The notes below the pieces were generated by a model. The model ran no database searches and was not told the origin of the DNA. It saw only the letters and a list, made by a program, of their open reading frames with translations. A DNA stretch of 64,000 nt from Balanoglossus misakiensis (Eukaryota > Animalia > Hemichordata). Every line of letters begins with the position of its first letter. Positions within the stretch are counted from its first letter, which is position 1. The stretch is taken from the NCBI GenBank assembly GCA_040954595.2, contig CM082577.2:16189903-16253902 (forward strand), written 5' to 3'. Position numbers and translations under genes: made by a program. Shown here piece after piece: positions 19,362-62,848 of the stretch.

Positions 19362-22300
19362 TTAAAGCTGCAAGCAGCATTGTCCGGGCCCAAGCTCTGT
19401 TATCTGATCTGATTATTAGATATGCACATAATTAATGAGTTGAAACATAATGCTGTGTTTTATCCCCATGAAATATCAAGGTTATATGTATGTTTGTTGT
19501 TGATATAGTGTTAAGTAGGTCAAAGGTCACCCAGAGGTCACCCACAATTTGGGCAGAAAATTTTGACCAACAGTGGTCCATGTCCAACAAAAACCAGACC
19601 TCTAGCCCTTTTGGTTAGCCCGGAATTAGGTATGCACATAAATAATGCGTAAAGCAGGTGTCACAGGTGACCCAAAACTTTGGCTTTTCATTATGGTCCC
19701 ATACCTCCAAATGTCAAGGCTGTACCTGCTTTGGATGCCGATATATGCAAAAGTAGGTCAAAGGTCATCTGAGGTCATCCAAAATTTGGGCAGAAAATTT
19801 TGACCCATAGTGGTCCATGTCAAACAAAAACCGGACATCTAGCCCTTTTGGTTAGCCCGGAATTAGGTATGCACATAAATAATGAGTAAAGCAGGTGTCA
19901 CAGGTGACTCAAAACTTTGGCTTTTCATTATGGCCCCATACCTCCAAACACCAAGGCTGTATCTGGTGTGGATGTCGAGATATGCAAAAGTAGGTCAAAG
20001 GTCACCCGAGGTCACCCAACATTTGGGCAAAATATTTTGACCCCATACTGGTCCATGTATAACAAAAACAAAACCTCTAGGTCTATTGGTTCATCATTAA
20101 TTAGGTATGCGCATATTTAATGAGGTCACCAGAGGTCAAAGGGGTCATGAAAAGTAGCAAAATTTTTTGATCACATACAAATCCACATACATCAAAAACC
20201 AAACTTATAGCCCCATTGGTTAGCCAGGAATTAGATATGCAGAAAAATGATTCGTCAAAAGTAGGTCAAAGGTCATTGCCAAAATTACCAAAATATTTAT
20301 AGCTTATTCTTGTCATATGATGATTCATATCCATAAAAAGAATTTCTGTGCTATCAATGTTTAGGCTAGAAAAGGAATTTTTACTTTTTAATCGTTTTTC
20401 ACAAAATCCAATATGGCCGCCATAATCTTCGACCAATCACATTCCACTTCGCAAACTTGATAGACATCTGTTTAATGACCACACACACCAAATCTTGTGA
20501 CTCGGTTATCGCCGGTTCTTGAGAAGAAGATTTTTGAAGTTTTACTATGGTTTTTCGAAAATCCAATATGGCCGCCATAATCTTCAACCAATCACAATGA
20601 TCTTCGCAAACTTGATAGACATCAGTTAGGTGACCACATACCCCAAACGGCGTGACTCGGTTATCGCCGGTTCTGGAGAAGAAGATTTTTGAAATTTTGA
20701 CCAGATTTCAGAAAAACAACTGCAGCCAAAAAACTGCAACATTGACAGCAAAATATCCAATTACAAAAATGATGGGCAGAGGGTATACTACCAGCACACC
20801 AAATCTGAAGTCGATCTGACTTGTAGTTTCTGAGATCTGAGATTTGCATTTTTTCAGAAAATCCAATATGGCCGCCATGTCACGTGACTAATTAAGTATT
20901 CACAAGTCACTGCACATCTACTCATTGACGTTGACCACTGTAGCAAGTTTGAGAACTGTACCTGCAGCAGTGTCTGAGATCTAGAGCGCGAAAGAAATGA
21001 ACCAAGAATAAAGAAAGAAAGAAAGAATTAAAGCTGCAAGCAGCATTGTCCGGGCCCAAGCTCTATTATCTGATCTGATTATTAGATATGCACATAATTA
21101 ATGAGTAGAAACATCAAAGGTCACCCAGGGGTCATCCACAATTTGGGCAGAACATTTTGACCCATAGTGGTCCATGTCCAACAAAAACCAGGCCTCTAGC
21201 CATTTTGGTTAGCCCGGAATTAGGTATGCACATAAATAATGAGTAAAGCAGGTGTCACAGGTGACCCAAAACTTTGGCTTTTCATTATGGCCCCATACCT
21301 CCAAATGCCAAGGCTGTATCTGCTGTGGATGTCGAGATATGCAAAAGTAGGTCAAAGGTCACCCGAGGTCACCCAACATTTGGGCAAAATATTTTGACCC
21401 CATACTGGTCCATGTATAACAAAAACAAAATCTCTAGGTCTATCGGTTCATCTGTAATTAGGTATGTGCATATTTAATGAGGTCAGCAGAGGTCAAAGGG
21501 GTCATGAAAAGTAGCAAAATTTTTTGATCACATACAAATCCACATACATCAAAAACCAAACTTATAGCCCTATTGGTTAGCCTGGAATTAGATATGCAGA
21601 AAAATGATGCGTCAAAAGTAGGTCAAAGGTCATTGCCAAAATTACCAAAATATTTATAGCTTATTCTTGTCATATGATGATTCATATCCATAAAAAGAAT
21701 TTCTGTGCTATCAATTTTTAGGCTAGAAAGGGAATTTTTACTTTTTAATCGTTTTTCACAAAATCCAATATGGCCGCCATAATCTTCGACCAATCACATT
21801 CCCCTTCGCAAACTTGATAGACATCTGTTTAATGACCACACACACCAAATCTTGTGACTCGGTTATCGCCCGTTCTGGAGAAGAAGATTTTTGAAGTTTT
21901 ACTATGGTTTTTCGAAAATCCAATATGGCCGCCATAATCTTCGACCAATCACAATGATCTTCGCAAACTTGATAGACATCAGTTAGGTGACCACATACCT
22001 CAAATGGCGTGACTCGGTTATCGCCGGTTCTGGAGAAGAAGATTTTTGAAAATTTGACCAGATTTCAGAAAAACAACTGTAGCAAAAAAACTGCAACATT
22101 GACAGCATAATATCCAATTACAAAAATGATGGGCATAAGGTATACTAGCTGCACACCAAATTTGAAGTCAATCTGACTTGTAGTTTCTGAGATCTGAGAT
22201 TTGCATTTTTTCAGAAAATCCAATATGGCCGCCAGGTCACGTGACTAATTAAATATTCACGAGCCACTGCACATCTACTCATTGGCCCCTATCTGCCTAC

Positions 22301-22495
22301 CAAGTTTCAGCCTGGTTGGTGCTGCAGTTTTTGAGATTTAGGTGGCCGAAAAATGGAACCAAGAATAAAGAAGGAAAGAAAGACTGAAAAACCCCAACGA
22401 AACCAATAGGGCCCAAGCGCTGGTATGCGCTTGGGCCCTAAAAACCCCAACGAAACCAATACGGGCCCAAGCCTGGCTTGGCTTGGGCCCGTAAT
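19362..22495 (-). mobile_element. HINE-like (Helentron-associated) element, outer copy
   Basis: Head hairpin GGGCCCAAGCC...GGCTTGGGCCC at 22463-22490, TTTC microsatellite, internal ~155-bp and ~237-bp tandem units, tail CTTGGGCCC + GCTGCTTGCAGC stem + TTTAA. Confidence 0.75.
21028..22441 (-). mobile_element. HINE-like element, inner copy nested in the outer copy's microsatellite
   Basis: Has its own tail at 21028 and its own head hairpin GGGCCCAAGCGCTGGTATGCGCTTGGGCCC ending at ~22438. Confidence 0.75.
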
Positions 22496-31100: not shown

Positions 31101-31229
31101 GTCTTTTTATTAAATTTATACCTTTACTTATACCTCTATGGTTAAGCTATGTCCACGTCTTAATGTGGAATTCTGGTCTGTGCAATAGTCCTGTACAGTG
31201 ACTGTCTATTGGTCAGTGAGCACAATGGG

Positions 31230-31741
31230 GCCAAAATAAAAGGCAAAATTTTGGGCTCACCTGTAACACCTGCTTAACACATTAATTATGTGCATACCTA
31301 ATTCCGGGCTAACTTATAGGGCTAGAGGTTTCGTTCTTGTGGGACATGGACCAGTATAGGGTCAAAATTTCTTGCCCAAATTTTGGGTGACCTCAGGTGA
31401 CCTTTGACCTACTTTCCTATATCTTGGCATCCAGAGCAGGTACAGACTTGGCGTTTGGAGGGTTGGGACTAAAATTGAAAAGCCAAAATTTGGGGTCATC
31501 TGTGACACCTGCATATCTCATTAATTATGTACATACCTAATTCCAGGCTAACCAATAGAGCTATAGGTTTGGTTTTTGTTGAACATGGACCAGTATATGG
31601 TCAAAATTTCTTGCCCAAATTTTGCATGACCTCAGGTGACCTTTGACCTACTTTTCCATATCTTGGCATCCAGAGCAGATATGCTTATTGCTATGTTGCT
31701 ATGTTGCTATGTTGGCTTGGGCCCGCTATTGCTGCTTGCAG
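31230..31741 (+). mobile_element. HINE-like element 3' part with two ~240-bp units
   Basis: GTGACCTTTGACCTACTT units; ends CTTGGGCCCGCTATTGCTGCTTGCAG. Confidence 0.65.
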
Positions 31742-42702: not shown

Positions 42703-44880
42703 ACTTTTATCATCCACCGCAAATAACTATACCTGAAGTGGACATTTCTCCACAAAAGAAGAGGCTTTCCATTGTTGGAAACATCCATGATGTGAGTACT
42801 GTAAAATGTTGCGCAAATAGCATGACTTGTTTCTCCCATTTATACAATACAACCATGTCTTGTCAAACTGACCTCAGCTCAAAATTACTGCCATTGATTC
42901 ATCATTTTGCAGTACAATTTTTAAAAAGCAACTGACGCAAATAACAACTACCCTTGCACTATTTCTCCACAACATTTATTAGTCGTAATTATTAACAATC
43001 AATGTTTTGCATTTTCTTTCCACCACAGTATGAATCGGTGACATACATCGAATTCCACGAAGACGGAAACTATAACCATAACTGATGGCATTCAAGATGC
43101 CCAAGTCAACCTCTGGGGAGAGAAAATAACCCTGCCATTGGACATAGGTGCCAAAGTTAAACTTGGCCCGTTGGTTGTCCACAGATATAAAACCTCTACG
43201 TTAAATACGACAGCGACAACTGAAGTGAAGGTGAGACCTTATATAAAACTCTTACATCTCAAAATTGAAATCCTACGTGTGATTTATTTCAGATGTTTAC
43301 AAATAGTGGGGCAGTTAACCCAAAAATCGTGCACTTTGGGTTAAAAGCATGAAACTTGGTACACTTATGTATTGACCCATGGCGGCCATTTTCTGATATG
43401 GATCCAAAATGACAGCGCCCTCTAGTGGCCAGAAACATACATTCATACTTAAAAACCGTGCACTTTGGGTTAAAAGCCTGAAACTTTGTACACTTATGCA
43501 TTGACCCATGGCGGCCATTTTCTAATATGGATCCAAAATGACAGCGCCCTCTTGTGGCCAGAAACTAACATTCAAACTTCCCCCCCATGAATGGCACTTT
43601 TTGGTCATTTGTAACACTCAGAAACAGGAATATGGGTTGTAAAACATGGTTGGTATCATACATTCATGTGTATATTATTCTAATCCTGATATACATGTAT
43701 CAGATCAATCTTGATGACATCTTCCTTCACAGTAACAATGACCACTGCTGCAAGACTAGATCTAAAGCACCTACAGAAACATGTGCATGACTTTTTGCAA
43801 CTGATTTCCTGAGGTTGACTCTTTTCTTGGGCTTGACTAAGAGTTGTCCAACTTGATTTCCACTGGGATTCTGTTGGTTTGATATAGCCTTGCTAGGTTT
43901 CTCATAGCACATGTTCTTTAGGAGCTGCCTGTATTCTCGAGAACCCATAACTTTCTGGAGAAGAGGTGTTGTCTTACCCCTTTGCATAACTTTGTGAATT
44001 CAACTGGTCTGTTTTTCGAAGAACAAATCGTTCAATTAGTAACATAAAAGATTGATCTGATACATGTACATCAGGATTATGATAATATTCAAAGGAATGG
44101 ATGGCAGCAAGCATGTTTTACAACCCATATTCCTGTGTCTGAGTGTTAAATTTACCCAAAATGTGTCATTAATGGGGGGAAAAGTGTAAATGTCAGTTTC
44201 TAGCCACTAGAGGGCGCTGTCTTTTGGGATCCATATTGGAAAATGTCCGCCATTGGTCAATGAATAATTGTACCAAATTTCATGCTTTTAACCCGAAGTG
44301 CACAATTTTAAAGTATGAATGTCTGTTTCTGGCCACTAGAGGGCGCTGTCATTTTGGATCCATATCAGAAAATGGCCGCCATGGGTCAATGCATAAGTGT
44401 ACCAAGTTTCATGCTTTTAACCCAAAGTGCACAATTATGCCAAAATTTGGGGTTTAGCTCCTGCACTAAAATGTTCATCAAAAAACCCTGCTCTCTGCAA
44501 ACATTACCCCTCCTCTTGTCAGTGCTTCTAATGTAACTCTGTTTTCCCTAAGGTGTTAGAAGAACGTACTGGTGAGGACATGGTAGATGGGTTGTTGAAG
44601 GGAATAGACATAGATGAGTAAGTATTAACCAATATCCTATCATTTTGTGTACATCAAGAAATGCCATGTTCATTTCTGTGTGCCTTACCATTAATACTCT
44701 GTCAACTATTCCTTTTAATTTTTTCTAGAAGTGGCATCTTCTGTGTTAGAGACGGCAAATACTTGCAGTGTCCCACATTATGCCAGACCTTGGGGACGGA
44801 GGAGGACATACTGCAAAAACCTGCCAATCCATGTACACTATCAAGCAAGACATGGAAAAGTTACAAAGATTGAGGAAGTA
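42703..44880 (+). pseudogene. Multi-exon OB-fold (RPA/SSB-like) gene remnant (exons ~42703-42791, 43029-43230, 44553-44617, 44729-44880)
   Basis: RLSIVGNIHD|...ITITDGIQDAQVNLWGEK...LDIGAKVKL..LVVHRYK.STLNTTATTEVK follows the OB-fold strand pattern. GT-AG junctions are phase compatible; internal frameshifts present. Confidence 0.55.
43304..44468. mobile_element. Academ-like foldback MITE (1.17 kb) with long TIRs built of ~120-bp subunits
   Basis: TAGTG...CACTA termini; 3-bp TSD AAA (43301-43303, 44469-44471); arms ~43304-43710 and ~44050-44468 are inverted. Confidence 0.75.
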
Positions 44881-47859: not shown

Positions 47860-48285
47860 GTGAGTAGATGAGGATTGTGCGGAAACAGTGACACACCAGA
47901 ATAAAAATTACAGGTGACATTGCAAGCAGATATGATCTTACGATATAGAAATATGGAATGTAAAAAAATTAACAAAGAACATGCGCAAAAACTGTCATGT
48001 GTCATGGCAGTCTTACAAGTGGTGCGAGAAATTTGTCACATACCAGAGGTGTTCAAAAAATACCAGGGCTACAATGCATGGAAACAAAACCGCCATCCAC
48101 AACCCATCCTGAAAAGTTGGGAGAATTACGGCTGGGAGAATTATGCCAAGATATAGTGCATGTGTTGGACTTGCCACCAAATTGCACGGATTGAAATAAG
48201 AAGCTCATGGCTGTACTACAGGAGTTTTTAGATTGTATGATGAAATATAAGCAATATCTTGACCAAAATCTGGTGGTGAAGAAAC

Positions 48286-48791
48286 TACGGTGGCCCTCTC
48301 ATGTCAGGCCTAAAATATTATTTTGAAAGTTAAACTTTCAAAATTATAGACAATATCTTCTCCCAAAAGTAAACTTAAGTTTTGGTGAAGGCAACTATAA
48401 TTTTGACGTACACAATTTCAATTTCAGTGGAGTAAACTTTTTAATTTTGACAGTAAAACTTTAATTTTACTTTACACAACTCTTATTTTAGAGAACAAAA
48501 GTTTAATTTCCGAAAGCCAATTTTATTTTTTCCGAGAGTAAAATTTTAAGATTTTTTTCCAAAATAAACTTCTAACACTTGAGATAAAATATTATCTATA
48601 CTACATAGAATTTTTTTATTTTCAGAAAGAAATAGTTAATTTTGTAAAACTTTTTTTAAGTAACATTACTTTTCGCGGGTGAAAATTTTATTTTACAGAT
48701 GTAAATATATTTTTATCTAATTTCTAGTTACACAACTTATGGGGGCGCTCTTTCTATTGCTACTGACAAACTTTTTCATGGGGGCGCTATT
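48286..48791 (+). repeat. Left terminal inverted repeat
   Basis: Reverse complement of 55836-56342 with only a handful of mismatches. Confidence 0.95.
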
Positions 48792-48865
48792 CAGGTTTCG
48801 GTGTACAAATTTTTTAGATAGATGCACAAAATATTTTTCTGAGAAAGCAAAATACTTTTTTAGTC

Positions 48866-48897
48866 GCGGCGGAAGTGAAGGTATCCCACAATTCCCA
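48866..48897 (+). promoter_or_regulatory. Putative promoter motif for the transposase (ETS-like CGGAAGT + TCCCACAAT)
   Basis: GCGGCGGAAGTGAAGGTATCCCACAATTCC lies 50-80 bp before ATG 48948 and is mirrored at 55732-55756. Confidence 0.5.
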
Positions 48898-48947
48898 CCT
48901 TTCAGGACGTTACAGGAGTATACATTCCCAACAAACAGACGGGAATA

Positions 48948-50159
48948 ATGGCGTCTCCGTCTCACCAAGAGAGTTTATCACCGACACCACACCTTTCTGA
49001 TGTCGATACTGATGACGGGGCGATGTGCGGAGACGACGAAGAAAGCTTGATACGACATTTTTTCTTTAGAGGATTCACGTATGACGAAATCCTTCTATTT
49101 TTAAGAAAATACCATGATATTCGTATTAGTAAGCGAACATTGGATCGTCGTATAAACTCGTATGGTTTGAAAAGACGACGAGTAGAATATGACATCGAAG
49201 CAGTGAGAGACAAAATCAAGGAAATGCTGGATGGACCAGAGTGCACCGGTGGCTATCGGACAGTATGGCACAGTCTCAAAATGGAAGGTATCAATGTTCC
49301 CAGAATTGTTGTTCAGCAGCTATTGAGGGAATTGGACCCAGAAGGCAGTTTTTTGAGAAGAGCACATCGACTCAAGAAAAGAGTATATTTGAATCCTGGA
49401 CCTAATTTTGCATGGCATGTTGACGGCTATGATAAACTGAAACCATTCGGCTTTCCCATACATGGAGCCATAGATGGATACAGTAGAAAGATATTGTGGC
49501 TTAATGTGACAAAGTCAAACAATCTCCCAGATAATATTGCAGCATATTACCTTGAAGCAGTAAACAGATTTGATGGCTGTCCCATTGAGCTGATCACTGA
49601 TCTTGGTACAGAAAATGGCACCATGGCTGCTACACAGGCATTTTTTCGGAACGACATTGATGCACATAGATATGTAGCATCTCCACGGAATCAGAGAATT
49701 GAAGCATGGTGGTCATTTCTGAGAAAAAACCGCTCAACATGGTGGATAAATTTCTTCAAGGATATGGAGTCACAGGGTATATTTGATTCCACTAATGATT
49801 TACATAAGGAATGCCTGTGGTTTTGTTTCGCGTGTTTACTCCAGAATGATCTTGATCATGTTCGTGAACATTGGAACACTCATTACATTCGGCGGTCAAG
49901 ACATGATACTGTACCAGGCAGACCGGACTCCCTATATTATCTCCCAGAACTCCACGGAGGTGCTGACAACTTAATCCAGCCTGTTGCGCAGGATGAAATG
50001 AACTATGTATATCATGAACTCATTGATAGAGACAATGATAATGACTATCAACAATATTTCCAATATGTTTTGCAAACATGTGCTATAAGCAAACCACTTC
50101 ACTGGAGAGATGCAATACAATTGTATGATGGATTAATACACGTGGCAGGAGAATATTAA
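48948..50159 (+). CDS. IS3/IS481-like (integrase-core) DDE transposase, 403 aa, intact
   Basis: N-terminal HTH (FTYDEIL...ISKRTLDRR). Catalytic motifs WHVDGYDKLK, IDGYSRK, ITDLGTEN and NQRIEAWW; also WNTHYIR. AATAAA twice at ~50265-50278. Confidence 0.92.
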   Translation: MASPSHQESLSPTPHLSDVDTDDGAMCGDDEESLIRHFFFRGFTYDEILLFLRKYHDIRISKRTLDRRINSYGLKRRRVEYDIEAVRDKIKEMLDGPECTGGYRTVWHSLKMEGINVPRIVVQQLLRELDPEGSFLRRAHRLKKRVYLNPGPNFAWHVDGYDKLKPFGFPIHGAIDGYSRKILWLNVTKSNNLPDNIAAYYLEAVNRFDGCPIELITDLGTENGTMAATQAFFRNDIDAHRYVASPRNQRIEAWWSFLRKNRSTWWINFFKDMESQGIFDSTNDLHKECLWFCFACLLQNDLDHVREHWNTHYIRRSRHDTVPGRPDSLYYLPELHGGADNLIQPVAQDEMNYVYHELIDRDNDNDYQQYFQYVLQTCAISKPLHWRDAIQLYDGLIHVAGEY

Positions 50160-50510
50160 CACACTATTTATTCATTTTGTTTAATGTGACTGTGATCTAG
50201 CCAGAATGGTATCAGATTTCAAGACAACACCCAGTAAAAGACAATCTTTATTCCTGTGTATTGCAATAAAGCAATAAACCAGGCCAGTAAATATTGGCAT
50301 ATTGAAATGAAATAAAGATTTGTCAATTGTCATTATTCCAAAATGCTACAAATCGCCACTGAGTTCTTTAGCTTCTGTTTTTCATATTTATGTGCCAGTT
50401 AGTTGTAGGCTAGAAGTGATATGTTTTTATAAGTGTGTGTGTGGATGTATGTATCATGAATGTATGCGCGAGTGCCTGTCTGGCTGTCTCAGTATGCATG
50501 CATGCACACA

Positions 50511-50858
50511 TACTGTATGGCAATGTGTGTGTGTGTTTACATACCCAGATGTACTTATGTATTTATTTATGTATGGATGGATGGATTGCTTGGCTTTGGG
50601 TGTGAGAATGGGTGGTTTAATAGATGGCTGGAAACATTCACCCATCTATTAAACCACCCATTCTCACACCCAAAGCCAAGCCAGCCATGCATACATACAT
50701 ACATACATACATACATACATGCATGCATGCATGCATGCATGCATGCATGCATACATACATACATACATACATACATACATACATACATACATACATACAT
50801 ACATACATACATACATACATACTGGTATGTAAATACACACACATTATCATACAGTATA
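50511..50858. repeat. Palindromic element with (CATA)n/(CATG)n microsatellite arms between the two IS3EU genes
   Basis: Stem GGCTTTGGGTGTGAGAATGGGTGGTTTAATAGATGG / CCATCTATTAAACCACCCATTCTCACACCCAAAGCC; outer arms ATACTGTATG / CATACAGTAT. Confidence 0.85.
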
Positions 50859-52313
50859 CACAAAATATCATGACTGCTCACATCCTTGTGGTACATCCAT
50901 CAGCCAGCACACACAACAGCCATACATATCTTCATGGCTGTAGGATTGAAAAAAAACACCCACAAAAATATTTAAGTCGGAACCATTTAATGCAGCGATA
51001 TAAAAGCACACAATAGTTGAATACAACTTTAGTGAAACATTTCTTGTAAAACATGCACAATGTCCTAGGTAAACAGTGGTAACGCCTCCCATTGCCTAAT
51101 TTTCATGCAAACTAGTAGACTGTTCACTATCTAATACACTGTAAAATGTTATTGCCTCTAGTGATCCTCCTCATTCTATAATACTCATCATGACATACAA
51201 TATAAAAAGTACACAGTGTTGTTTCAGTCTGATTATCAATACATGTACTGGTATAGTTTATACTGTTCTTTGTTGTGTCATCTTTCTCTGTCAATGGCAA
51301 AACATTGATACCCCCACTGAACAGTAGGTTGTTATGAATGTTCACATCACACACAATTGTCCAGACACTGTCCGATGTGAAAAATGTCTGACTATTATAG
51401 TGATTACAGACCCTCAACTCCGAATGATTGTTCGCTACCACTCTGGCTTGGCCTCCAGCAGTGAGTCCAGCTATGAATGGAGGTCCTCTGATTGTGGGAG
51501 AAATTGTTGAACCCAGCTAGGGCTGGGTATAGTTAAGTGCAGTCAAGATTCCTGATCAAACAAATAAACCTCATTAAAATTGGCCACATTTGTTAACAGC
51601 ACTGTGTATAGAACTACATGTATTAGCAGTCAAGTCAGGCATGATAGTAACATCACTACAAAATCTACAAACAGTTGCATGCTCTAAAAATACAGTAACA
51701 ATGGTAAACAGTTTTAAAGGTTAAAGACTAGAGCCAATAGCCACTGTGGCACTTGTGATGATTTCAAGTAATTATGCAGGAAAAGTATAAGAAAAGTAAA
51801 TTCCATACACCCTTTTCATAAGTCTAGTGCCCAGGCCCTCATGCAGCAATTATGAATTTGAACCTCGAAGTGATTGGTCAACTTTTCCCCATTGGCCTCA
51901 CTTTGAGTTCAAATACATGATGGCTGCGTGATGGTACCAGACTTATGAAAGGGGTGCATTGTTAATGACATAGTCCCCACAATTTGTAACTGTAGTCATA
52001 AAATTTAACAAAAACAATCCATGTGTATATGTATAACACAAGCAATTTGTATGAAATCACTTCTGAGGCGTTTGAGTTCCAGATATAACAAATCCAATAA
52101 AAAATAACTCTCCAGTGGCCATAACACCACACATTACCAGTATAACAGTAACTTCAAACTTTAAAAAAAGGAATGTCAACTCTTGAGGGAAAAACGGGGT
52201 ACACAATTCTGTAAAAATAGAACAGTAAAACCTGTCTAAACTGAACCCTGTTTTGTCAGTCTGGAAACCTGTCTATTCTGAACATATTTTCCAGTACACT
52301 GTCTGTAACAGAC

Positions 52314-54244
52314 TTATGCATAACCAAAACCCTTGGAATTGGTTATGGCAAAAGCCATAGCATGTTTAAATGCATCATATGTTTTGTGTAATACTGGAAG
52401 GTGGAGCACACCAGCACAAGTGTTGGCTTTGGGGAATTTAGATTGAGCTTCACTTCCATGAAGGAACATAATTCTTGGAGTTAGTCCTTGGACAAGCTCT
52501 GTACACCCAATGGTAAACATCATTATCTCGGCCAGTGTCACATTGTCTATTTCTTGATCTTGGACATCTTGCAAGAAATCTGCCCAGTATGACAGGAGAA
52601 GACTTTCAGCGTTGAACATATTGGATCCTTCCTCACTCCGTGTAACATCAGATAAAAACATATCAGTAGTTAGTGGAGCAGGCTCACAGAAGACAGGCTG
52701 GAAGCTTGTTGGGTACTGCCGCATAGCCTCAAGTACACCAAGTGAAGACAACCCATCAGTAAACTGATCAAAGGCTTCTCTATTTCTGCCATACATGTTC
52801 CATTTCACTGTGGACCCAATGACTGCTGACTTGTCAATTTCAGTACGTATCAGTCTCCATGTACCAGCAATCTCAGTGATACTTTCTAAGTTATCAGTCA
52901 GCACTTGGTTGGCTTCATCAATGGGCGCATTTTGCAATGCAGTGAGGTCAGCTTTTACTGGGTTGTTCTGAGGGAGATCATCAATAGTAGGCTTGATTGA
53001 GTCACATCCATGTACAATAGCTTGGCAGAAATGGTCTGCAAAGCAGTGGGGAGCAGGACCTCCATGGACAAGAGACATGGCAATTAGCTGACCTGCCATG
53101 TAATACTCATTTTCATCAGCGCATCTACTAACACATGATAAGTATTTCTGGTTGTGTTCACCATCAAAGAGCTCACTATTGGTTATATAGTTCATGGTTA
53201 ATGTCAAGAGCTCCCTCATAGGGCCCCCTGCATCCACAGCTCCTTCTGATGAGCCATCATCATCTGTGAATTTCACAGAAATCTTATTTTTTGGATGGAA
53301 TGACTTGCGTTTTAGGCCTCTCTTGACACCATCAAAAAGATGATTTCTGGAAATATTGAACTGTGATGTCTTGCTGTGATCAATCTGCTCGGCAAGGTTG
53401 GCCAAAATCTCTGCAAGTGGTACTGTGGTGGTTGCATCGGGAGGTACTTGTTGGATATCATCACCAGAATCTGATATGTACACAGTTTCATTTTCATCAG
53501 AAAATAAAGTGGCATACACATCATCAATCTCCAACCTACTTTTCTTGATTTCTGTCGGATCTTCATTGACCACTGATGTAGTGGCCTTGGGTGTGGTCAT
53601 TACACATGGATGCTTCTCACGAGTTTTGTCATCTCCAACATCATGCACTTCTTCATTTGTGACTTTTCTTTTTTGTCTCTCTTTATTGTGCTCTCTTGCA
53701 TTTGAACAGCCATGATTCTCAGAAACCTCACCACCATCACTTTCTTCAGGGTTTGACAGAGTGTCATATCCCATGGATGTATCAAAGTCACGTTCGGAAC
53801 AGAGGAACAGCTTTATTCTCTTGTAGTCAACTCCAAGTTCATCTTTGTATCGAGATAACATGAAAAATTCTTTCTTCTCTGATCCTGGGATGAAAAGTGC
53901 TTGCGATCCATCTTCATACACAAGTATATAGTTTTGTTGTTCATCAATGAAATTCTTCTTGAAAGACTTCCATTTTTGAAGTCCTGTCTCTAATATTGTT
54001 GCATAAGTTGCATTAGTTTTGGCCTGGATTGGTAGGCGTTTTCCCCAGTGTGGCTTCAGCTGTTGCAGCTTCTCATCGAAATACATGACACCTATTGAGA
54101 TCTGGACATCATCTTCATGGCTTGTCTTTCCTACTCCTTTCCTTCTGCTCCCTTTTGGTGTGAATTTACGATATGAATTCTTTTCCTCTTTGAATGCACT
54201 GAATGACTTTACTCGACCAAACATCTTTTCTGCATATGTTGAAA
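52314..54244 (-). CDS. HECT E3 ubiquitin ligase (G2E3-like), main exon
   Basis: VKFTDDDGSSEGAVDAGGPMRE, YYMAGQLIAMSLVHGGPAP, QFTDGLSSLGVL, FPKANTC (catalytic Cys) and C-terminal GFGYA*. Acceptor TTTTTCAG at 54252-54245, 20 nt before ATG 54224. Confidence 0.92.
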
Positions 54245-54372
54245 CTGAAAAATATGGATAATAACATAAAATTGTTATAACCAGAGATAAACTGAGGTTT
54301 AAAGAATAGGTTCCATATCTAAGTAGATAGAAAAAAGTACAGTAAGTCAGAAAGCTTCAGCATATCACTCAG

Positions 54373-54520
54373 TGATTAAAATCAGATGTAGGGAACAGCG
54401 ACGTCCTTTACTTAAGTGGTACGATATTCTTATGCTGTCGCCTCACACTAGGCGAGAGCATAAGAATACCGCACCGCATAATTAAAAGACGTCGCCGTTC
54501 CCTACATCTGATTTTAATCA
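54373..54520. repeat. ~150-bp hairpin mini-element in the intron
   Basis: TGATTAAAATCAGATGTAGGGAAC...GTTCCCTACATCTGATTTTAATCA, centred on CGCCT...AGGCG. Confidence 0.85.
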
Positions 54521-55374
54521 GATTGATAAATCGTGTATGAAAAACAGACAAAAATGTTTCAACACATAAGACAATTTGGAGAAGCAGCCAAAAGCCTATG
54601 CTGTGATCAATACTGTTTATTGCTTTATTGGCTTGCAGTTAAAAAGCAAATATCTAATTGAATCAAATCGTTTCGAAGCACACCCACACTCATGCCCCCC
54701 TGTCCCTAAAAATAATGGTATCATACAGGGGCTAAGGGACTGGTCAGTTTCTTCAGTCGGGGGGGGGGGGGGGGCAGTGGATTATAGGGGGTCACCTTGA
54801 TTTGGAAATGCTGAATGAGGGACTAAAATTGCTTTTGAGTACACAAAAATTCAGTTTCAAGCTCTTTATACTACAAGATTTTCTAACGTGGAAGGGGACA
54901 ACCCTCCCACCCCCTTCACTTCTCTTGATTACTATGTCTGCCAATTATTGTAATGACTTGCATATTTTGTTTATTCATGTTATATTTAATTATTTAAATT
55001 AATGCATAAATGCAAATTGTTATGTTATTCATTCCCTAAGTTTTTGAAAGTTGGTATGGGAGGTGTCACCAACTTTTAAATGTTCAATGAGGGGGGGGGG
55101 GTGGGGTTAGCCACATTTTGATATCAACAAAATAGAATCCACCCCGGCTGAAGAAATGTCCCTAAAGACGTGCACTATTAAATTGACCTGATCTGCATAT
55201 CACTTCGTACACGCTCTGTGTTTCTGGCGTTACACGTCTCGGACGGGCATGCGGGGCTAGGCTAGATCCGCATCAGCTGTACGCTGGAAGCGATTCGTGA
55301 ATAATCCAGGTTTTGTAAATCTCTCAGATTACAAAATAAAGAAACACACGTAGACGGTAGAACAGACAACTTAC

Positions 55375-55690
55375 CGGGAGTAACTTTACCGGCACTGGCA
55401 TCACCCCCTTTACCACTAGATGCAGGAGAATTGGCATATACAACCTCAAGTTGATTACCATGTACCCGGGCCCATCCATTATTTGGTGGATAAATGACAC
55501 CATTCACACATCTGAGGCCACGAATTGTGAGGCATCCATCGATGACATTGACAGTTCGGTACCTTACACCACAGGCTCCGGAAAATTGGCACTGAACAGT
55601 GCTTAACAATAAAGTTTCGTCTCGTTCGAGCGGCAACTCGACGGTTTGGCCGCTCTGCTTGTCCGTAACGACGATGTACTCTTCGGTCAT
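55375..55690 (-). CDS. TDP-43 N-terminal-domain-like first exon, predicted to splice to the HECT exon
   Basis: MTEEYIVVTDKQSGQTVELPLERDETLLLSTVQCQFSGACGVRYR...RGLRCVNGVIYPPNNGW resembles TDP-43 [44 protein letters not shown]...RGVRLVEGILHAPDAGW. Donor CCG|GTAAG at 55374 (phase 1). Confidence 0.85.
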
Positions 55691-55731
55691 GGCAGAGGTT
55701 TAGGAGAAAAACGTTGCTGTGGCATGGCATG

Positions 55732-55756
55732 GTGGGATACTTCAACTTCCGCCGCC
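55732..55756 (-). promoter_or_regulatory. Putative promoter motif for the TDP43N-HECT gene
   Basis: Minus strand GGCGGCGGAAGTTGAAGTATCCCAC lies 40-65 bp before ATG 55690. Confidence 0.5.
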
Positions 55757-55835
55757 GTTAAAAAAATTTTTGTGCTTGTCGAAAAAAAAGTTTCACTGTT
55801 CCCTAAAAAGTTACAAAGTAGCACTTGAAAAAAAT

Positions 55836-56342
55836 AATAGCGCCCCCATGAAAAAGTTTGTCAGTAGCAATAGAAAGAGCGCCCCCATAAGTTGTGTAAC
55901 TAGAAATTAGATAAAAATATATTTACATCTGTAAAATACAATTTTCACCCGCGAAAAGTAATGTTACTTAAAAAAAGTTTTACAAAATTAAATATTTCTT
56001 TCCGAAAATAAAAAAAATTCTATGTAGTGTAGATAATATTTTATCTCAAGTGTTAGAAGTTTATTTTGGAAAAAAATCTTAAAATTTTACTCTCGGAAAA
56101 AATAAAATTGGCTTTCGGAAATTAAACTTTTTTTCTCTAAAATAAGAGTTGTGTAAAGTAAATATAAAGTTTTACTGTCAAAATTAAAAAGTTTACTCCA
56201 CTGAAATTGAAATTGTGTGCGTCAAAATTATAGTTGCCTTCACCAAAACTTAAGTTTACTTTTGGGAGAAGATATTGTCTATAATTTTGAAAGTTTAACT
56301 TTCAAAATAATATTTTAGGCCTGACATGAGAGGGCCACCGTA
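55836..56342 (-). repeat. Right terminal inverted repeat
   Basis: Reverse complement of 48286-48791. Confidence 0.95.
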
Positions 56343-58402
56343 AGAAACAGTCTCAGTGTAGTATTGAACCACTGCGTGCACCAACGTTTGATTCTGTCAT
56401 GAAGTATATTGCTGCTACAGATGTAATCAAGCCCGTGTATCAGCCATTGAACAATGCACTAAAAGAGAAAGGTGATTTCAGCCCATTGCTTTTGGATGAA
56501 TTTGCAAGTGATGACCGCTATGAAAGACGCAAGTATATACAGGATTTGACATTGTCTGTCCTCACAATGCTGTATAGAATGTCGTATGGTGGCAGGATTG
56601 GTACACTTTCGTTTATTTGGTCTGTTCCCCCTGGAAGTACTGGTACACAAGATGTAGAAACCAGAAATGCTCAACTGGTTGCTGGTATCATCGAAAAACT
56701 TCCAGTATACTCAACACGTGCTATGCATCGTGACTTTATAAACAAATACAGCAACCACCTGAAGGGGTCAACAGCAGTTCTACGTCAGATGTACCATGAG
56801 TTGACAGGGGACAGCACAGCATCAGAGACAAGTGAACAAACTGAGATTGACTTAAGAGCAGCTGAGATACTCCTTGGGTCTGATGACCCAAACTTGCTAT
56901 TGGATTACAGGAAATCAAATGGCAAACCAGGATCAACTAACTTTCAAGTCTTTTACGATGAATGTGAGAAGTATTTTGAAGAGCATCTGAATCCAGCTGT
57001 CAATGACAGAAGGCATGGTGATGAGCTTTACATACCTATTGCTACACCTATTGAAGACCTTCGATCTGAAGTAGCCATACGTCTACCACCAGATACTCCT
57101 GTTCCAAGCACTTCCACACTACGGCTTCAGTTTCATCCAATGAATGAATACGCAAATACTGCATTACGCTATACTGGCAGATTTAACATCAAATTCTAAG
57201 TGCAGTCAAGAATTTCCAGAATGGATCATCCACATTCAAAATATGTGTTCACACAGTACAGATATCTAAAGGAAATGTTGGTGAAATTCCGCAGCAGTGC
57301 CACATTTTGTTGCTTGGATGACAAATCAATCATCCCACTTGGTGAACCTAACCTATCCATTGCAACTGGTGTCCGTGGTCATAACCGTGTACTTGCACCA
57401 ATGTTTGGTCCAAGACTTGCTGCTGCAGATCATGATTTTCATGTTGCTGGACTTGTACCATCAGTAGCACTGGTGACAAATATTCCAGAGAATGCTAGTG
57501 ATAGCTTTTTCACAGGGAATATTCATGTAACAACAAAGGATAAAGTGTTTCAACCATCTACACCTCTCAGGCAAGCAACTGAACTTTGCAAGATATTCCG
57601 TGGTGCCAAATCAGCAGATGGTACAAAACTGAGTGATGAAATTCTAGCCATTTTTACAGATGGCGGTCCTTATCACCGTGTAACCTATGAGAGTGTCATA
57701 TTGGCTCTTATTGCCCTGTTTATGTGCACTGATGTTGACATGCTGACAGCTCTACGCACAGCACCTCACCATAGCTGGGTTAATCCTGCAGAGAGATGTA
57801 TGTCAATACTGAATTTGGCTATTCAGCATGTAGCTCTAGCTCGGCGCAGCATGGATGAACAGTTTGAAACTATGGTCAGAAATAAATCCCGTCTTACTGC
57901 AGTAAGAAATGTTGCTGAAAGACGTCCAGCCTTCAAAGAAGCATTCAGCGAGTCAGTTGAGCCAGTAATAGCCACAGTAGCTCAGCGTTTCAGTCGGATG
58001 AAACTCAAAGACCAGCCTCTGTCTGTACATGATGCTGCAACTGATGATGAAATAGATGCCATGATGGATCCTGCCCACCTGTATTTGGATGACTCACTGT
58101 CAAGAAAGTCAACTAGCAATGAAATAAAAAAGTCTACTGGTTTCCAGGACTTCATTGCTAGTCATGGAAAAAGTACACACTATGCTTTTCAGCTGAAGAA
58201 ATGTTCCAGTACCTACAGCAAATCCAGTACGCATGGATGCAGAAGCATTTGCCACATTACACTTCCTACCAGATCCAATGCCAGATGACACTGGGGCCCA
58301 CTACAAGCCTTTTTCTGAGGTGTGTGACATCTATTGTTTATTGGGGGCACAAGCGCCCTCAGGCGGCTTGTGCCCCCATTGTTATTGTTGGAATATTTCT
58401 TC

Positions 58403-61400
58403 TTTATTAGGGCCCAAGCGCATACCAGCGCTTGGGCCCTATTGATTTCGTTGGGGTTTTTCAGTCTTTCTTTCTTTAGGGCCCAAGCGCACGCAAGCGC
58501 TTGGGCCCTATTGGTTTCGTTGGAATTTTTCTTTCTTTCCGGCTTTCTTTCTTTCTTTATTCTTGTGTCAATTCTTTGGGCAACGAGATCTCAGACACCG
58601 CTGCAGGTACACTTCTCAAACTTGCTACAGTGGTCAAGGTCAATGAGTAGATGTGCAGTGACTTGTGAATACTTAATTAGTCACGTGACCTGGCGGCCAT
58701 ATTGGATTTTCTGAAAAAAATCAAATCTCAGATCTCAGAAACTACAAGTCAGATCGACTTCAAATTTGGCATGCAGGTAGACTACCTTCTACCCATCATT
58801 TTTGTAATTGGAAATTTTGCTGTCAATGTTGCAGTTTTTTTGCTACAATTTTTTTTCTGAAATCTAGCTTAAATTTCAAAAATCTTCTTCTCCAGAACCG
58901 GTGATAAGCGAGACACAAGGTTTGGGGTATGTGGTCACCTAACTGATGTCTATCAAGTTTGCGAAGATCATTGTGATTGGTCGGAGATTATGGCGGCCAT
59001 ATTGGATTTTCGAAAAACCATAATTAAACTCCAAAAATCTTCTTCTCCAGAACGGGCGATGACTGAGTCGCAAGATTCGGGGAGTATGGTCACTACACTG
59101 ATGTCTATCAAGTTTGCAAAGAGCATTGTGATTGGTCGAAGATTATGGCGGCCATATTGGATTTTGTAAAAAGCAGTGAAAAATTAAAATTCCTTTTTCT
59201 AGTATAAAAATTGATAGCATACAAATTCTTTTAATGGATATCATTCGTCATATGACTACAATATGTTACAAATTTTTGGCGATTTTTCACATGACCTTTG
59301 ACCTACTTTTCACACATTATTATTTCTGCATATCTAATTCCAGGCTAACCTATAGGGCTAGACGTTTGGTTTTTGATGCATGTGGATTAGTGTGTGATCA
59401 AAATATTTTGCTACTTTTCATGACCCCTTTGACCTCTGCCGACCTCATTAATTATGTGCATAGCTAATTACAGGCGAACCAATACAGCTAGAGGTTTGGT
59501 TTTTGTTGAACATGGACCAGTATGGGGTCAAAATTTTTTGCCCAAATGTTGGGTGACCTCTGGTGACCTTTGACCTACTTTCGCATATCTCAACGTCCAG
59601 AGCAGATACAGCCTTGGCATTTGGCAGGATGGGACCTAAATGTAAAGCCAAATTTTTGGATCACCTGTGACACCTGCTGACCTCATTAAATATGCACATA
59701 CCTAATTACACGCGAACCAATAGAGCTAGAGTTTTGGCTTTTGTTGGACATGGCCCAGCATGGGTCAAAAATTTTTGCCCAAATGTTGGTGATCTCAGGT
59801 GACCTTTGACCTACTTTACCCTATTTCAGCCGCAAAAATACACACGTCCTTGTTATGTCATGAGATAATACACCCGATAGAAAATTCTGTTTCTTCTCAT
59901 TCATACTGCGCATATATAATTCAAGATCAGCGCTTGGGCCCGACAATGCTGCTCGCAGCTTTAATTCTTTCTTTCTTTCTTTATTCTTGGTTCCATTTTT
60001 CGGCCACCTAAATCTCAAAAACTGCAGCACCAACCAGGCTGAAACTTGGTAGGCAGATAGGGGCCAATGAGTAGATGTGCAGTGGCTCGTGAATATTTAA
60101 TTAGTCACGTGACCTGGCGGCCATATTGGATTTTCTGAAAAAATGCAAATCTCAGATCTCAGAAACTACAAGTCAGATTGACTTCAAATTTGGTGTGCAG
60201 CTAGTATACCTTATGCCCATCATTTTTGTAATTGGATATTATGTTGTCAATGTTGCAGTTTTTTTGCTACAGTTGTTTTTCTGAAATCTGGTCAAATTTT
60301 CAAAAATCTTCTTCTCCAGAACCGGCGATAACCGAGTCACGCCATTTGGGGTATGTGGTCACCTAACTGATGTCTATCAAGTTTGCGAAGATCATTGTGA
60401 TTGGTCGAAGATTATGGCGGCCATATTGGATTTTCGAAAAACCATAGTAAAACTTCAAAAATCTTCTTCTCCAGAACGGGCGATAACCGAGTCACAAGAT
60501 TTGGTGTGTGTGGTCATTAAACAGATGTCTATCAAGTTTGCGAAGGGGAATGTGATTGGTCGAAGATTATGGCGGCCATATTGGATTTTGTGAAAATCGA
60601 TTAAAAAGTAAAAATTCCCTTTCTAGCCTAAACATTGATAGCACAGAAATTCTTTTTATGGATATGAATCATCATATGACAAGAATTAGCTATAAATATT
60701 TTGGTAATTTTGGCAATGACCTTTGACCTACTTTTGACGTATCATTTTTCTGCATATCTAATTCCAGGCTAACCAATAGGGCTATAAGTTTGGTTTTTGA
60801 TGTATGTGGATTTGTATGTGATCATAAAATTTTGCTACTTTTCATGACCCCTTTGACCTCTGCTGACCTCATTAAATATGCACATACCTAATTAATGATG
60901 AACAAATAGACCTAGAGGTTTGGTTTTTATTATACATGGACCAGTATGGGGTCAAAATATTTTGCCCAAATGTTGGGTGACCTCGGATGACCTTTGACCT
61001 ACTTTTGCATATCTCGACATCCACAGCAGATACAGCCTTGGCGTTTGGAGGTATGGGGCCATAATGAAAAGCCAAAGTTTTGGGTCATCTGTGACACCTG
61101 CTTTACTCATTATTTATGTGCATACCTAATTCCGGGCTAACCAAAATGGCTAGAGGTCTGGTTTTTGTTGGGACATGGACCACTATGGGTCAAAATTTTC
61201 TGCCCAAATTTTGGATGACCTCAGATGACCTTTGACCTACTTTTGCATATCTCAGCATCCAAAGCAGGTACAGCCTTGGCATTTGGCGGTATGGGGCCAT
61301 AATGAAAAGCCAAAGTTTTGGGTCACCTGTGACACCTGCTTTACTCATTATTTATGTGCATACCTAATTCCGGGCTAACCAAAAGGGCTAGAGGTCTGGT

Positions 61401-61631
61401 TTTTGTTGGGACATGGACCACTATGGGTCAAAATTTTCTGCCCAAATTTTGGATGACCTCTGGGTGACTTTTGACCTACTTAACACTATATCAACACCAA
61501 ACATAGATATAACCTTGATATTTCATGGGATAAAACACAGCATTATGTTTCTACTCATTAATTATGTGCATATCTAATAATCAGATCAGATAATAGAGCT
61601 TGGGCCCGGACAATGCTGCTTGCAGCTTTAA
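58403..61631 (+). mobile_element. HINE-like element B (middle)
   Basis: Head hairpin at 58409-58440; tail CTTGGGCCCGGACAATGCTGCTTGCAGCTTTAA; near-identical to the reverse complement of 21028-22441. Confidence 0.75.
58475..59964 (+). mobile_element. HINE-like element C (inner)
   Basis: Head hairpin at 58478-58510; tail GCGCTTGGGCCCGACAATGCTGCTCGCAGCTTTAA. Confidence 0.75.
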
Positions 61632-62848
61632 TTCTTCTTCTTCTTCTTCTTCCGAGAAATTCGGCCAGGTAGATCTGGAAAACCGCTGCACCTAGGGGGC
61701 TGAAACTTGGTAGGGTGATAGGGGCCAATGAGTAGACGTGCAGTGGCTCGTAAATATTTTAATTAGTCACGTGACCTGGCGGCCATATTGGATTTCCTGA
61801 AAATCGTCAAACGAGTCCTTCTCAAAAACTGCTGGGCCGATCGAGTTCAAATTTGGTGTGCAGGTAGCCTACCTTCTGTCCATCATTTTACTCCATTGAA
61901 ATCATGACGTCACACATAAAGTTTTTTTGCTACAATTGTTTTTCTGAAAAACTACTTAAAACTTTAAAAATCTTCTTCTCCAGAACCAGCGATTGCCGAG
62001 TCACGGGATTCGGGGTATGTGGTCACCTAACCTATGTCTATCAAGTTTGCGAAGTGCACTGCGATTGGTCGATCATTATGGCGGCCATGTTGGATTATCG
62101 GAAAACCATTGAAAAATGAAAATTCCGTTTTGTAGCCAAAATGTTGACAGCACGGAAATTCTTTTTTTGGATATGAGTCATCATATGACCGGAAGTTGTC
62201 ACAATTTTTCAGGGCAATTTTCACATGACCTTTGACCCAGTTTTAAAACAACTAATTATATATGCATATTCCCCATACCTCCTCTTGTCAAAGCACCACA
62301 CTCATGAATTTTGTGGACATGGGTACCAATGCTGCCAGGACATGACACAAATATTTTGGTAATTTTGGCAATGACCCTTGACCTTTTTCTGAAACATCAT
62401 TTTTCTGCATATCTAATTCCAGGCTAACCAATAGGGCTAGAGGTCTGGTTTTAGTTGGACATGCCCACTCTGTGGTCAAAATTTTATGCCCAAATTTTGG
62501 GTGACCTTGGATGACCTTTGATGTACATTGCCATATCTCAGCATCCACAGCAATTAGAGTCCTGGCTTTTGGGGGGGGGCGGTGGAGCACATACATGTAT
62601 GGAGTCTTACACAAGACCTCATTAATTATGCACATACCTAATTCTAGGCGAACCAATAGAGCTAGGGGTCTGGTTTTTGTTGGATCTAGGCTAGTATGGG
62701 GTCCATTTTTTGCCCAATTTTGGGGTGACCTCAGGTGACCTTTGACCTACTTTCCCATATCTTGGTATCCCCAGCATATACAGCCATGGCGTTTGCTGGT
62801 CACCATGGGAACCTGCTTGTGCCCCGCCAACGCTGCTTGCAGCTTTAA

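Follow-up and report, generated by a model that had tools for sequence, protein, structure and literature searches.

A predicted TDP-43 N-terminal domain/HECT ligase gene within an intact hemichordate IS3EU transposon

The element and its setting

The stretch of DNA analysed here (the window: 64,000 nucleotides of Balanoglossus misakiensis contig CM082577.2) contains one copy of an intact IS3EU element of 8,057 bp, at 48286-56342. The element holds an intact transposase gene and, convergent to it, a two-exon gene for a putative HECT ubiquitin ligase whose predicted first exon encodes a TDP-43 N-terminal domain (NTD). TDP-43 is an ALS-linked RNA-binding protein and the NTD is its self-assembly domain. 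The features, in window coordinates, are:

48280..48285, no strand: left target-site duplication, AGAAAC
48286..48895, plus strand: left terminal inverted repeat (TIR), starting TACGG, with the motif GCGGAAGT at 48869, 79 nt before the transposase ATG
48948..50159, plus strand: intact IS3EU/GingerRoot transposase, 403 aa (Pfam rva_4, E 1.9e-31)
52314..54244, minus strand: exon 2 of the ligase gene, with a basic stretch, a ubiquitin-like domain, an acidic linker and a HECT domain
52317..53363, minus strand: HECT domain, G2E3-like by the annotation of its relatives (Pfam E 1.1e-11, 45.4 bits against a cutoff of 23.9)
53796..54107, minus strand: ubiquitin-like (beta-grasp) domain, assigned from a structure model and its fold matches
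54245..55374, minus strand: predicted phase-1 intron, 1130 nt
54363-54528: 166-bp palindrome within the predicted ligase intron
55375..55690, minus strand: predicted exon 1, 316 nt beginning with ATG, encoding the NTD and a short Gly/Ser linker
55726..56342, minus strand: right TIR, with GCGGAAGT at 55752, 62 nt before the exon-1 ATG
56343..56348, no strand: right target-site duplication, AGAAAC

IS3EU elements are defined, in the family descriptions of PMC10045372 and PMC12730594, by TA..TA ends and 6-bp target-site duplications. Here the ends run from TACGG at 48286 to its complement CCGTA ending at 56342, which is the TAYGG..CCRTA pattern of IS3EU/GingerRoot TIRs, and the 6-bp duplication is identical on both sides (expected by chance at 1 in 4096 for a single site). 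Over their outermost 506 bp the two TIRs match at 498/506 positions (98%), and homology extends to 48895/55726. At their inner end sits the motif GCGGAAGT, present four times in the window, which we take to be an ETS-type promoter site. The transposase retains a catalytic triad (D159/D218/E252) and shares the motifs WHxDxYDKLKP, IDGxSR, DxGTEN and NQRIE with IS3EU-1_CGi (the IS3EU row in the supplement of PMC10045372); on its Pfam match and these shared motifs we assign it to the IS3EU lineage of DDE transposases. A search of viral contigs for the transposase gave no loci. An earlier reading made from the sequence alone had described an intact IS3EU-type element with TIRs, and the ends, duplication, repeats and transposase all bear this out; its coordinates were correct throughout.

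The element lies within another, broken transposase-like frame (56349-58288, plus strand, and 48190-48285), and the empty site is open over 31 codons on the upstream side and 283 on the downstream side, with a 362-codon frame after that. The interrupted frame at 56349-58288 had no match in a Pfam search; its motifs look Zator-like. The element also has three internal palindromes, at 54363-54528, 51805-51959 and 50549-50720, with arms matching at 83%, 70% and 86%, respectively; the last adjoins a (CATA)n/(CATG)n microsatellite, and all three are possibly MITE-like insertions. Elsewhere in the window, a repeat family with 238-bp and 155-bp subunits occupies 19500-22400, 31150-31700 and 58500-62760, with two blocks that lie 37 kb from each other in inverted orientation (matching at up to 98% over 1212 nt), and a pair of 262-bp inverted arms (43325-43586 and 44175-44436), 91% complementary and 588 nt apart, looks like a non-autonomous element.

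A predicted two-exon ligase

Our analysis of exon 2 predicts a ligase of the HECT type: the domain clears its Pfam cutoff, Cys715 (codon 52416-52418) aligns with the catalytic Cys of WWP1, and Phe745 is the fourth residue from the C-terminal end. The linker ahead of it is acidic, with 10 D/E and 1 K/R in residues 351-400. The catalytic Cys, terminal Phe and acidic linker had all been recognised in the sequence-only reading, as had a conserved "spacer" domain. That domain is indeed present, in relatives too, and what was a spacer can now be identified from a structure model as ubiquitin-like (Ubl). The model has pLDDT 81-92 over residues 41-149 and its top structural matches are all ubiquitin-like folds (best Z 9.1, rmsd 3.4, 89 aligned), with Z values of 7-9 among which no single family stands out; these matches rule out an uncharacterised new fold. 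In the Atlas, the domain neighbours unnamed clusters from cnidarians and sponges. Since the spacer models as ubiquitin-like, the order of the predicted protein is NTD, Ubl, acidic linker, HECT. A complex prediction of the transposase against HECT plus Ubl, run without alignments, scored 0.00 and returned "no answer", which speaks neither for nor against an interaction.

Exon 1 matches TDP-43_N (PF18694) in Pfam at E 1.4e-17 (63.8 bits against a cutoff of 27.1) and the TDP-43 NTD in the PDB at E 4e-17, and its Atlas score for this domain is 0.95; agreement at about E 1e-17 across three libraries rules out chance similarity. The Pfam search found no RRM in either ligase exon, so that the full TDP-43 architecture, with two RRMs after the NTD, does not apply here. 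The lack of an RRM and the position inside the TIRs also rule out a host TARDBP pseudogene. Thus the 316-nt, RRM-free NTD exon proposed earlier stands, and the profile searches that had been suggested as a check place both TDP-43_N and HECT above their Pfam cutoffs.

The two exons would be joined from a donor CCG/GTAAGT at 55374 to an acceptor TTTTTCAG at 54245, giving 748 aa in frame with the terminal stop as the only stop, in agreement with the phase-1 join and the length of about 748 aa first proposed. The nearest AATAAA lies 1.7 kb beyond the ligase stop, which counts against the join. Could exon 1 instead be a gene fragment that is neither joined to nor needed by the ligase, which would then start at an in-frame Met at 54224, just 20 nt inside exon 2? 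Capture of host gene fragments by GingerRoot elements is described in PMC6839031, and a Saccoglossus relative of exon 1, described below, is annotated as a free 106-aa protein. However, the exon-1 ATG lies directly behind the right TIR, its distance from GCGGAAGT mirroring that of the transposase start on the left; phase 1 is shared by the best donor and the two GTAAAG sites near it (55389 and 55413), and the frame is kept with either of two acceptors, 54245 or 54230. Moreover, the same join is annotated in Ptychodera, and copies 39-51% identical retain the conserved positions of the domain. We therefore regard an unjoined fragment as very unlikely, and the predicted splice as, with high probability, genuine. 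An unspliced exon call on an ENA contig (P0103) continues into G where the Ptychodera protein shows D, as expected from a phase-1 intron.

Relatives of the two exons

The Ptychodera flava protein (RefSeq XP_070570922, P0002) has the same NTD-Ubl-HECT order and the same junction as the window ligase, with identities of 39% in the NTD, 58% in the middle domain and 75% in the HECT N-lobe. It is a gene model with a truncated HECT, and in it the fusion sits unrecognised in RefSeq as an "uncharacterized protein". Its HECT groups with that of the window at SH-aLRT 99 in a tree of 34 rows picked from 81 proteins, P0082, P0238 and 4 loci. In Saccoglossus kowalevskii, the 106-aa protein XP_077861864 (P0090), annotated "TAR DNA-binding protein 43-like", carries the same NTD variant and is probably the first exon of such a ligase gene, known here from the protein annotation. 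The NTDs of the window, P0002, P0103 and P0090 share an insertion in the beta3-beta4 loop. A quick-method tree from a short alignment (177 rows, 84 columns) places them loosely together with two long-branch rows, in an unstarred group at SH-aLRT 89, and names no donor lineage. That the variant is held by two hemichordate genera, Ptychodera and Saccoglossus, suggests age or transfer. The split between these genera is deep.

Taking conserved positions as those defined across 150 other NTD rows, the window and P0002 are identical at 17/21 conserved positions against 17/53 variable ones (p 2e-4), and the same contrast gives p 0.011 or lower for all six pairs of the four related NTDs; this agreement indicates that the exon-1 domain has stayed under constraint from the time the copies diverged. 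Head-to-tail chaining of TDP-43 uses, in the interface residues given in PMC5491494, a tail of E14, E17, E21, Q34, I16 and P19 and a head of N45, S48, M51, R52, G53, R55 and N76. Of these, the seven that are at least 80% conserved (E17, P19, E21, Q34, R52, G53 and R55) are retained without exception in the window, P0002 and P0103 (7/7 each), and P0090 keeps 5/7. Having both faces, the domain is likely still able to form head-to-tail chains. The interface is not more conserved than other conserved positions (7/7 against 11/14, p 0.52), so that fold maintenance alone could explain part of the pattern. The window has changes at E14, N45 and S48, and none of the four related domains retains N45. 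The beta3-beta4 loop, on the head side, has 11-16 residues in the four NTDs and 7 in 137/172 other rows, a lengthening of 4-9, and the beta1-beta2 loop has a charge of 0 to -2 against a mean of -4.2 in the 150 others. Such remodelling beside both faces would favour self over host pairing. The join in Ptychodera, the constraint between copies and the retention of both faces lend support to the earlier proposal that the element captured a host oligomerisation module.

Where could the exon have come from? Among TDP-43 matches, the residue after the PK motif that ends the domain is G in 67/84 single-frame calls and D/E in 20/26 TDP-43 proteins that continue towards the RRM, from which we infer that host TARDBP has a phase-1 intron right after the NTD. 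Its first coding exon would thus fit, as it stands, in front of a phase-1 acceptor. Compared with the host donor, that of the related copies is shifted about 4 to 20 codons downstream, so that phase but not exact position is shared. Of 48 scanned among the 150 best NTD homologs, 30 have RRMs, 16 are NTD-only calls and none has a HECT domain. Three proteins (P0083, P0084, P0168) carry two tandem TDP-43 N-terminal domains with no RRM match; P0167 proved a false match, a bacterial adhesin. In metagenome contigs 0/427 pattern matches to exon 1 were confirmed, and a word-seeded search among longer proteins, weak enough to have missed P0002 too, scored 0/169 candidates.

A second group comes from the scallop Argopecten irradians, where multi-copy HECT genes with a divergent TDP-43_N-like front (P0237, P0238, P0240, P0242 and P0077) lie on at least three contigs and have several RefSeq isoforms. 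The proteins are full-length; their match to TDP-43_N is borderline (26.9-29.5 bits against a cutoff of 27.1), their middle region is a different one and their HECT is intact. Their NTD-like part is without the interface, P0238 keeping 2/9 scored positions, and the HECT tree sets P0238 apart from the window HECT, in a way compatible with one origin. We treat the scallop fusion as a weaker example, perhaps of independent capture.

The HECT gene itself is a long-standing partner of the IS3EU lineage. A metagenome scan covering 25/64 parts yielded 51 loci with a HECT alignment, some of them near-duplicates; an IS3EU-type transposase lies downstream on the opposite strand in 10/51, and in 9 of the 19 loci with at least 2 kb of downstream sequence. 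This fits the earlier belief that related elements carry HECT cargo. One locus, L006, represents a sister element that has a TACGG end and TIRs and whose transposase is 57% identical to the window's; in its ligase a CxxC..CxxC zinc ribbon, with zinc-ribbon matches below Pfam cutoffs, stands ahead of the same Ubl and in the same exon. The fish relatives P0047 and P0050 begin with a zinc ribbon too. In other relatives (L002:386-1621, L003:5905-7141 and L004:786-2024) a different front exon with a weak UBX match (E 0.03-0.05) lies upstream of the HECT exon; its start is presumably SAM-like. A further group has yet another front end. The TDP-43 NTD occurs in 0/51 related HECT loci (16 with at least 2 kb upstream), and PF18694 in 2/81 HECT protein relatives. 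Together, the varied front modules of the sisters and the rarity of the NTD point to a variable front slot of which the NTD is a rare occupant. Viral contigs and prokaryote genomes searched for HECT gave no loci.

Possible roles and known systems

We propose, with slightly less than even confidence, that the captured domain makes the element's HECT ligase self-assemble head to tail. The front module of the lineage's own ligase would have been replaced, through exon capture, by the NTD from the first coding exon of host TARDBP, which likewise seems to end at a phase-1 intron. A promoter in each TIR would drive one of the two convergent genes, and the two exons would be spliced into one ligase. 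The NTD would then polymerise the ligase into oligomers with raised activity, or raised avidity for a substrate common to the lineage; candidates are the transposase and a host restriction factor. As a by-product, the ligase may also co-assemble with host TDP-43 to some extent. Since the ligase predates the capture and persists without the NTD, TDP-43 is unlikely to be its core substrate, and the altered loops beside both faces are what one would expect of an interface diverging from the host's. On the other hand, host-like interface residues fit hetero-assembly equally well. We know of no polymerising role for a zinc ribbon, and thus the front slot need not serve oligomerisation.

Alternatively, the domain could be a substrate adaptor: it would co-polymerise with host TDP-43 and expose it to ubiquitination by the HECT domain, or cap TDP-43 chains, and so loosen the host's hold on transposons. 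The contact residues kept on both faces would allow this, N-terminal modules are established determinants of HECT substrate choice, complementary NTD faces on separate molecules pair with each other both in vitro and in cells (PMC12905282), loss of TDP-43 deregulates transposable elements (PMC10857847, PMC12758826) and another cargo proposed to counter silencing, TET/JBP, is found in IS3EU elements (PMC12730594). However, the evidence linking TDP-43 to transposable elements in the passages cited is mammalian, concerns retroelements where a class is named, and includes none on DNA transposons in invertebrates. The remodelling at both faces and the loss of N45 also speak against it, as do the relatives that persist without the domain, and degrading an essential host protein would presumably be costly. 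We consider this role unlikely. Quite unlikely, in our estimate, is that the domain serves as a localisation tag, bringing the ligase to TDP-43 assembled on nascent RNA or chromatin, where the ligase would act on another protein. The same interface conservation supports this, basic stretches after the junction could be nuclear signals, and a swappable slot fits a targeting role, but the same loop remodelling counts against it. Both roles still deserve consideration, given that the residues of the key salt bridges match the host's and that complementary faces of separate molecules pair. Self-assembly, TDP-43 targeting and docking are not fully exclusive modes. Because sister elements fill the slot with unrelated modules and the loops at both faces differ from those of TDP-43, the sequences do not favour the adaptor, which the sequence-only reading put first, over its second option, polymerisation of the ligase.

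Read most boldly, a hemichordate IS3EU lineage threads its HECT ligase into TDP-43 chains as a natural TDP-43 degrader that disarms silencing, with a possible second, independent capture in scallops; we regard this as improbable. If the ligase did bind and ubiquitinate oligomeric TDP-43, it would offer the TDP-43 field a natural NTD-directed degrader and an orthogonal interface variant. More generally, the NTD is normally tied to RNA-binding proteins and is here reused in an intact transposon, a case of exon capture into a swappable slot of the transposon's own ligase. This accounts for some of the stray gene names, "TDP-43-like" and "G2E3-like", in the annotation of invertebrate genomes, and provides a direct test of transposon counter-attack on TDP-43.

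In a search of openly accessible literature by title and abstract, we found no report of a TDP-43 NTD/HECT/transposon fusion, in keeping with the sequence-only reading, which knew of none. Nor did we find literature on IS3EU or GingerRoot together with HECT, though Repbase entries or subscription journals may describe such cargo; "HECT" and "ubiquitin" are absent from the main texts of PMC10045372, PMC6839031 and PMC12730594, and the main text of PMC12062965 has neither HECT nor TDP. IS3EU itself is already known, as is the anti-silencing cargo of fungal IS3EU described in PMC12730594.

How, then, does the locus compare with known systems? The window domain is about 49% identical over 73 residues to the NTD of TDP-43 (TARDBP; PF18694, PDB 5MDI/6B1G), keeps E17, E21, Q34, R52 and R55, and likewise ends its exon in phase 1. 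It differs in a 4-residue beta3-beta4 insertion, in the changed N45 and S48 and in a neutralised acidic beta1-beta2 loop, and the protein, unlike TDP-43, has no RRM and no low-complexity tail, its NTD being fused to Ubl and HECT instead. The HECT domain is 31-73% identical to the relatives compared among the multi-copy genes annotated "G2/M phase-specific E3 ubiquitin-protein ligase-like", which share its catalytic Cys and C-terminal Phe and are often transposon-linked. True G2E3 carries PHD/RING fingers, whereas the front end here is a TDP-43 NTD plus Ubl. G2E3-like matches among unclassified repeats are mentioned once in PMC5638112. With IS3EU/GingerRoot elements, as characterised in PMC10045372, PMC6839031 and PMC12730594, the element shares its TA..TA (TAYGG..CCRTA) ends, 6-bp duplication, integrase-like DDE transposase with the same motifs and a second gene in opposite orientation. 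That gene is an alpha-kinase in fungal families and here a HECT ligase with a TDP-43 NTD, unlike those described, and its TIRs, at 500-600 bp, exceed the 100-150 bp described in plant GingerRoot elements. The fungal TET/JBP-carrying elements (PMC12730594) come close in that their IS3EU cargo is proposed to counter host silencing; as described there, however, it acts on DNA methylation rather than ubiquitin and is without a captured host oligomerisation domain.
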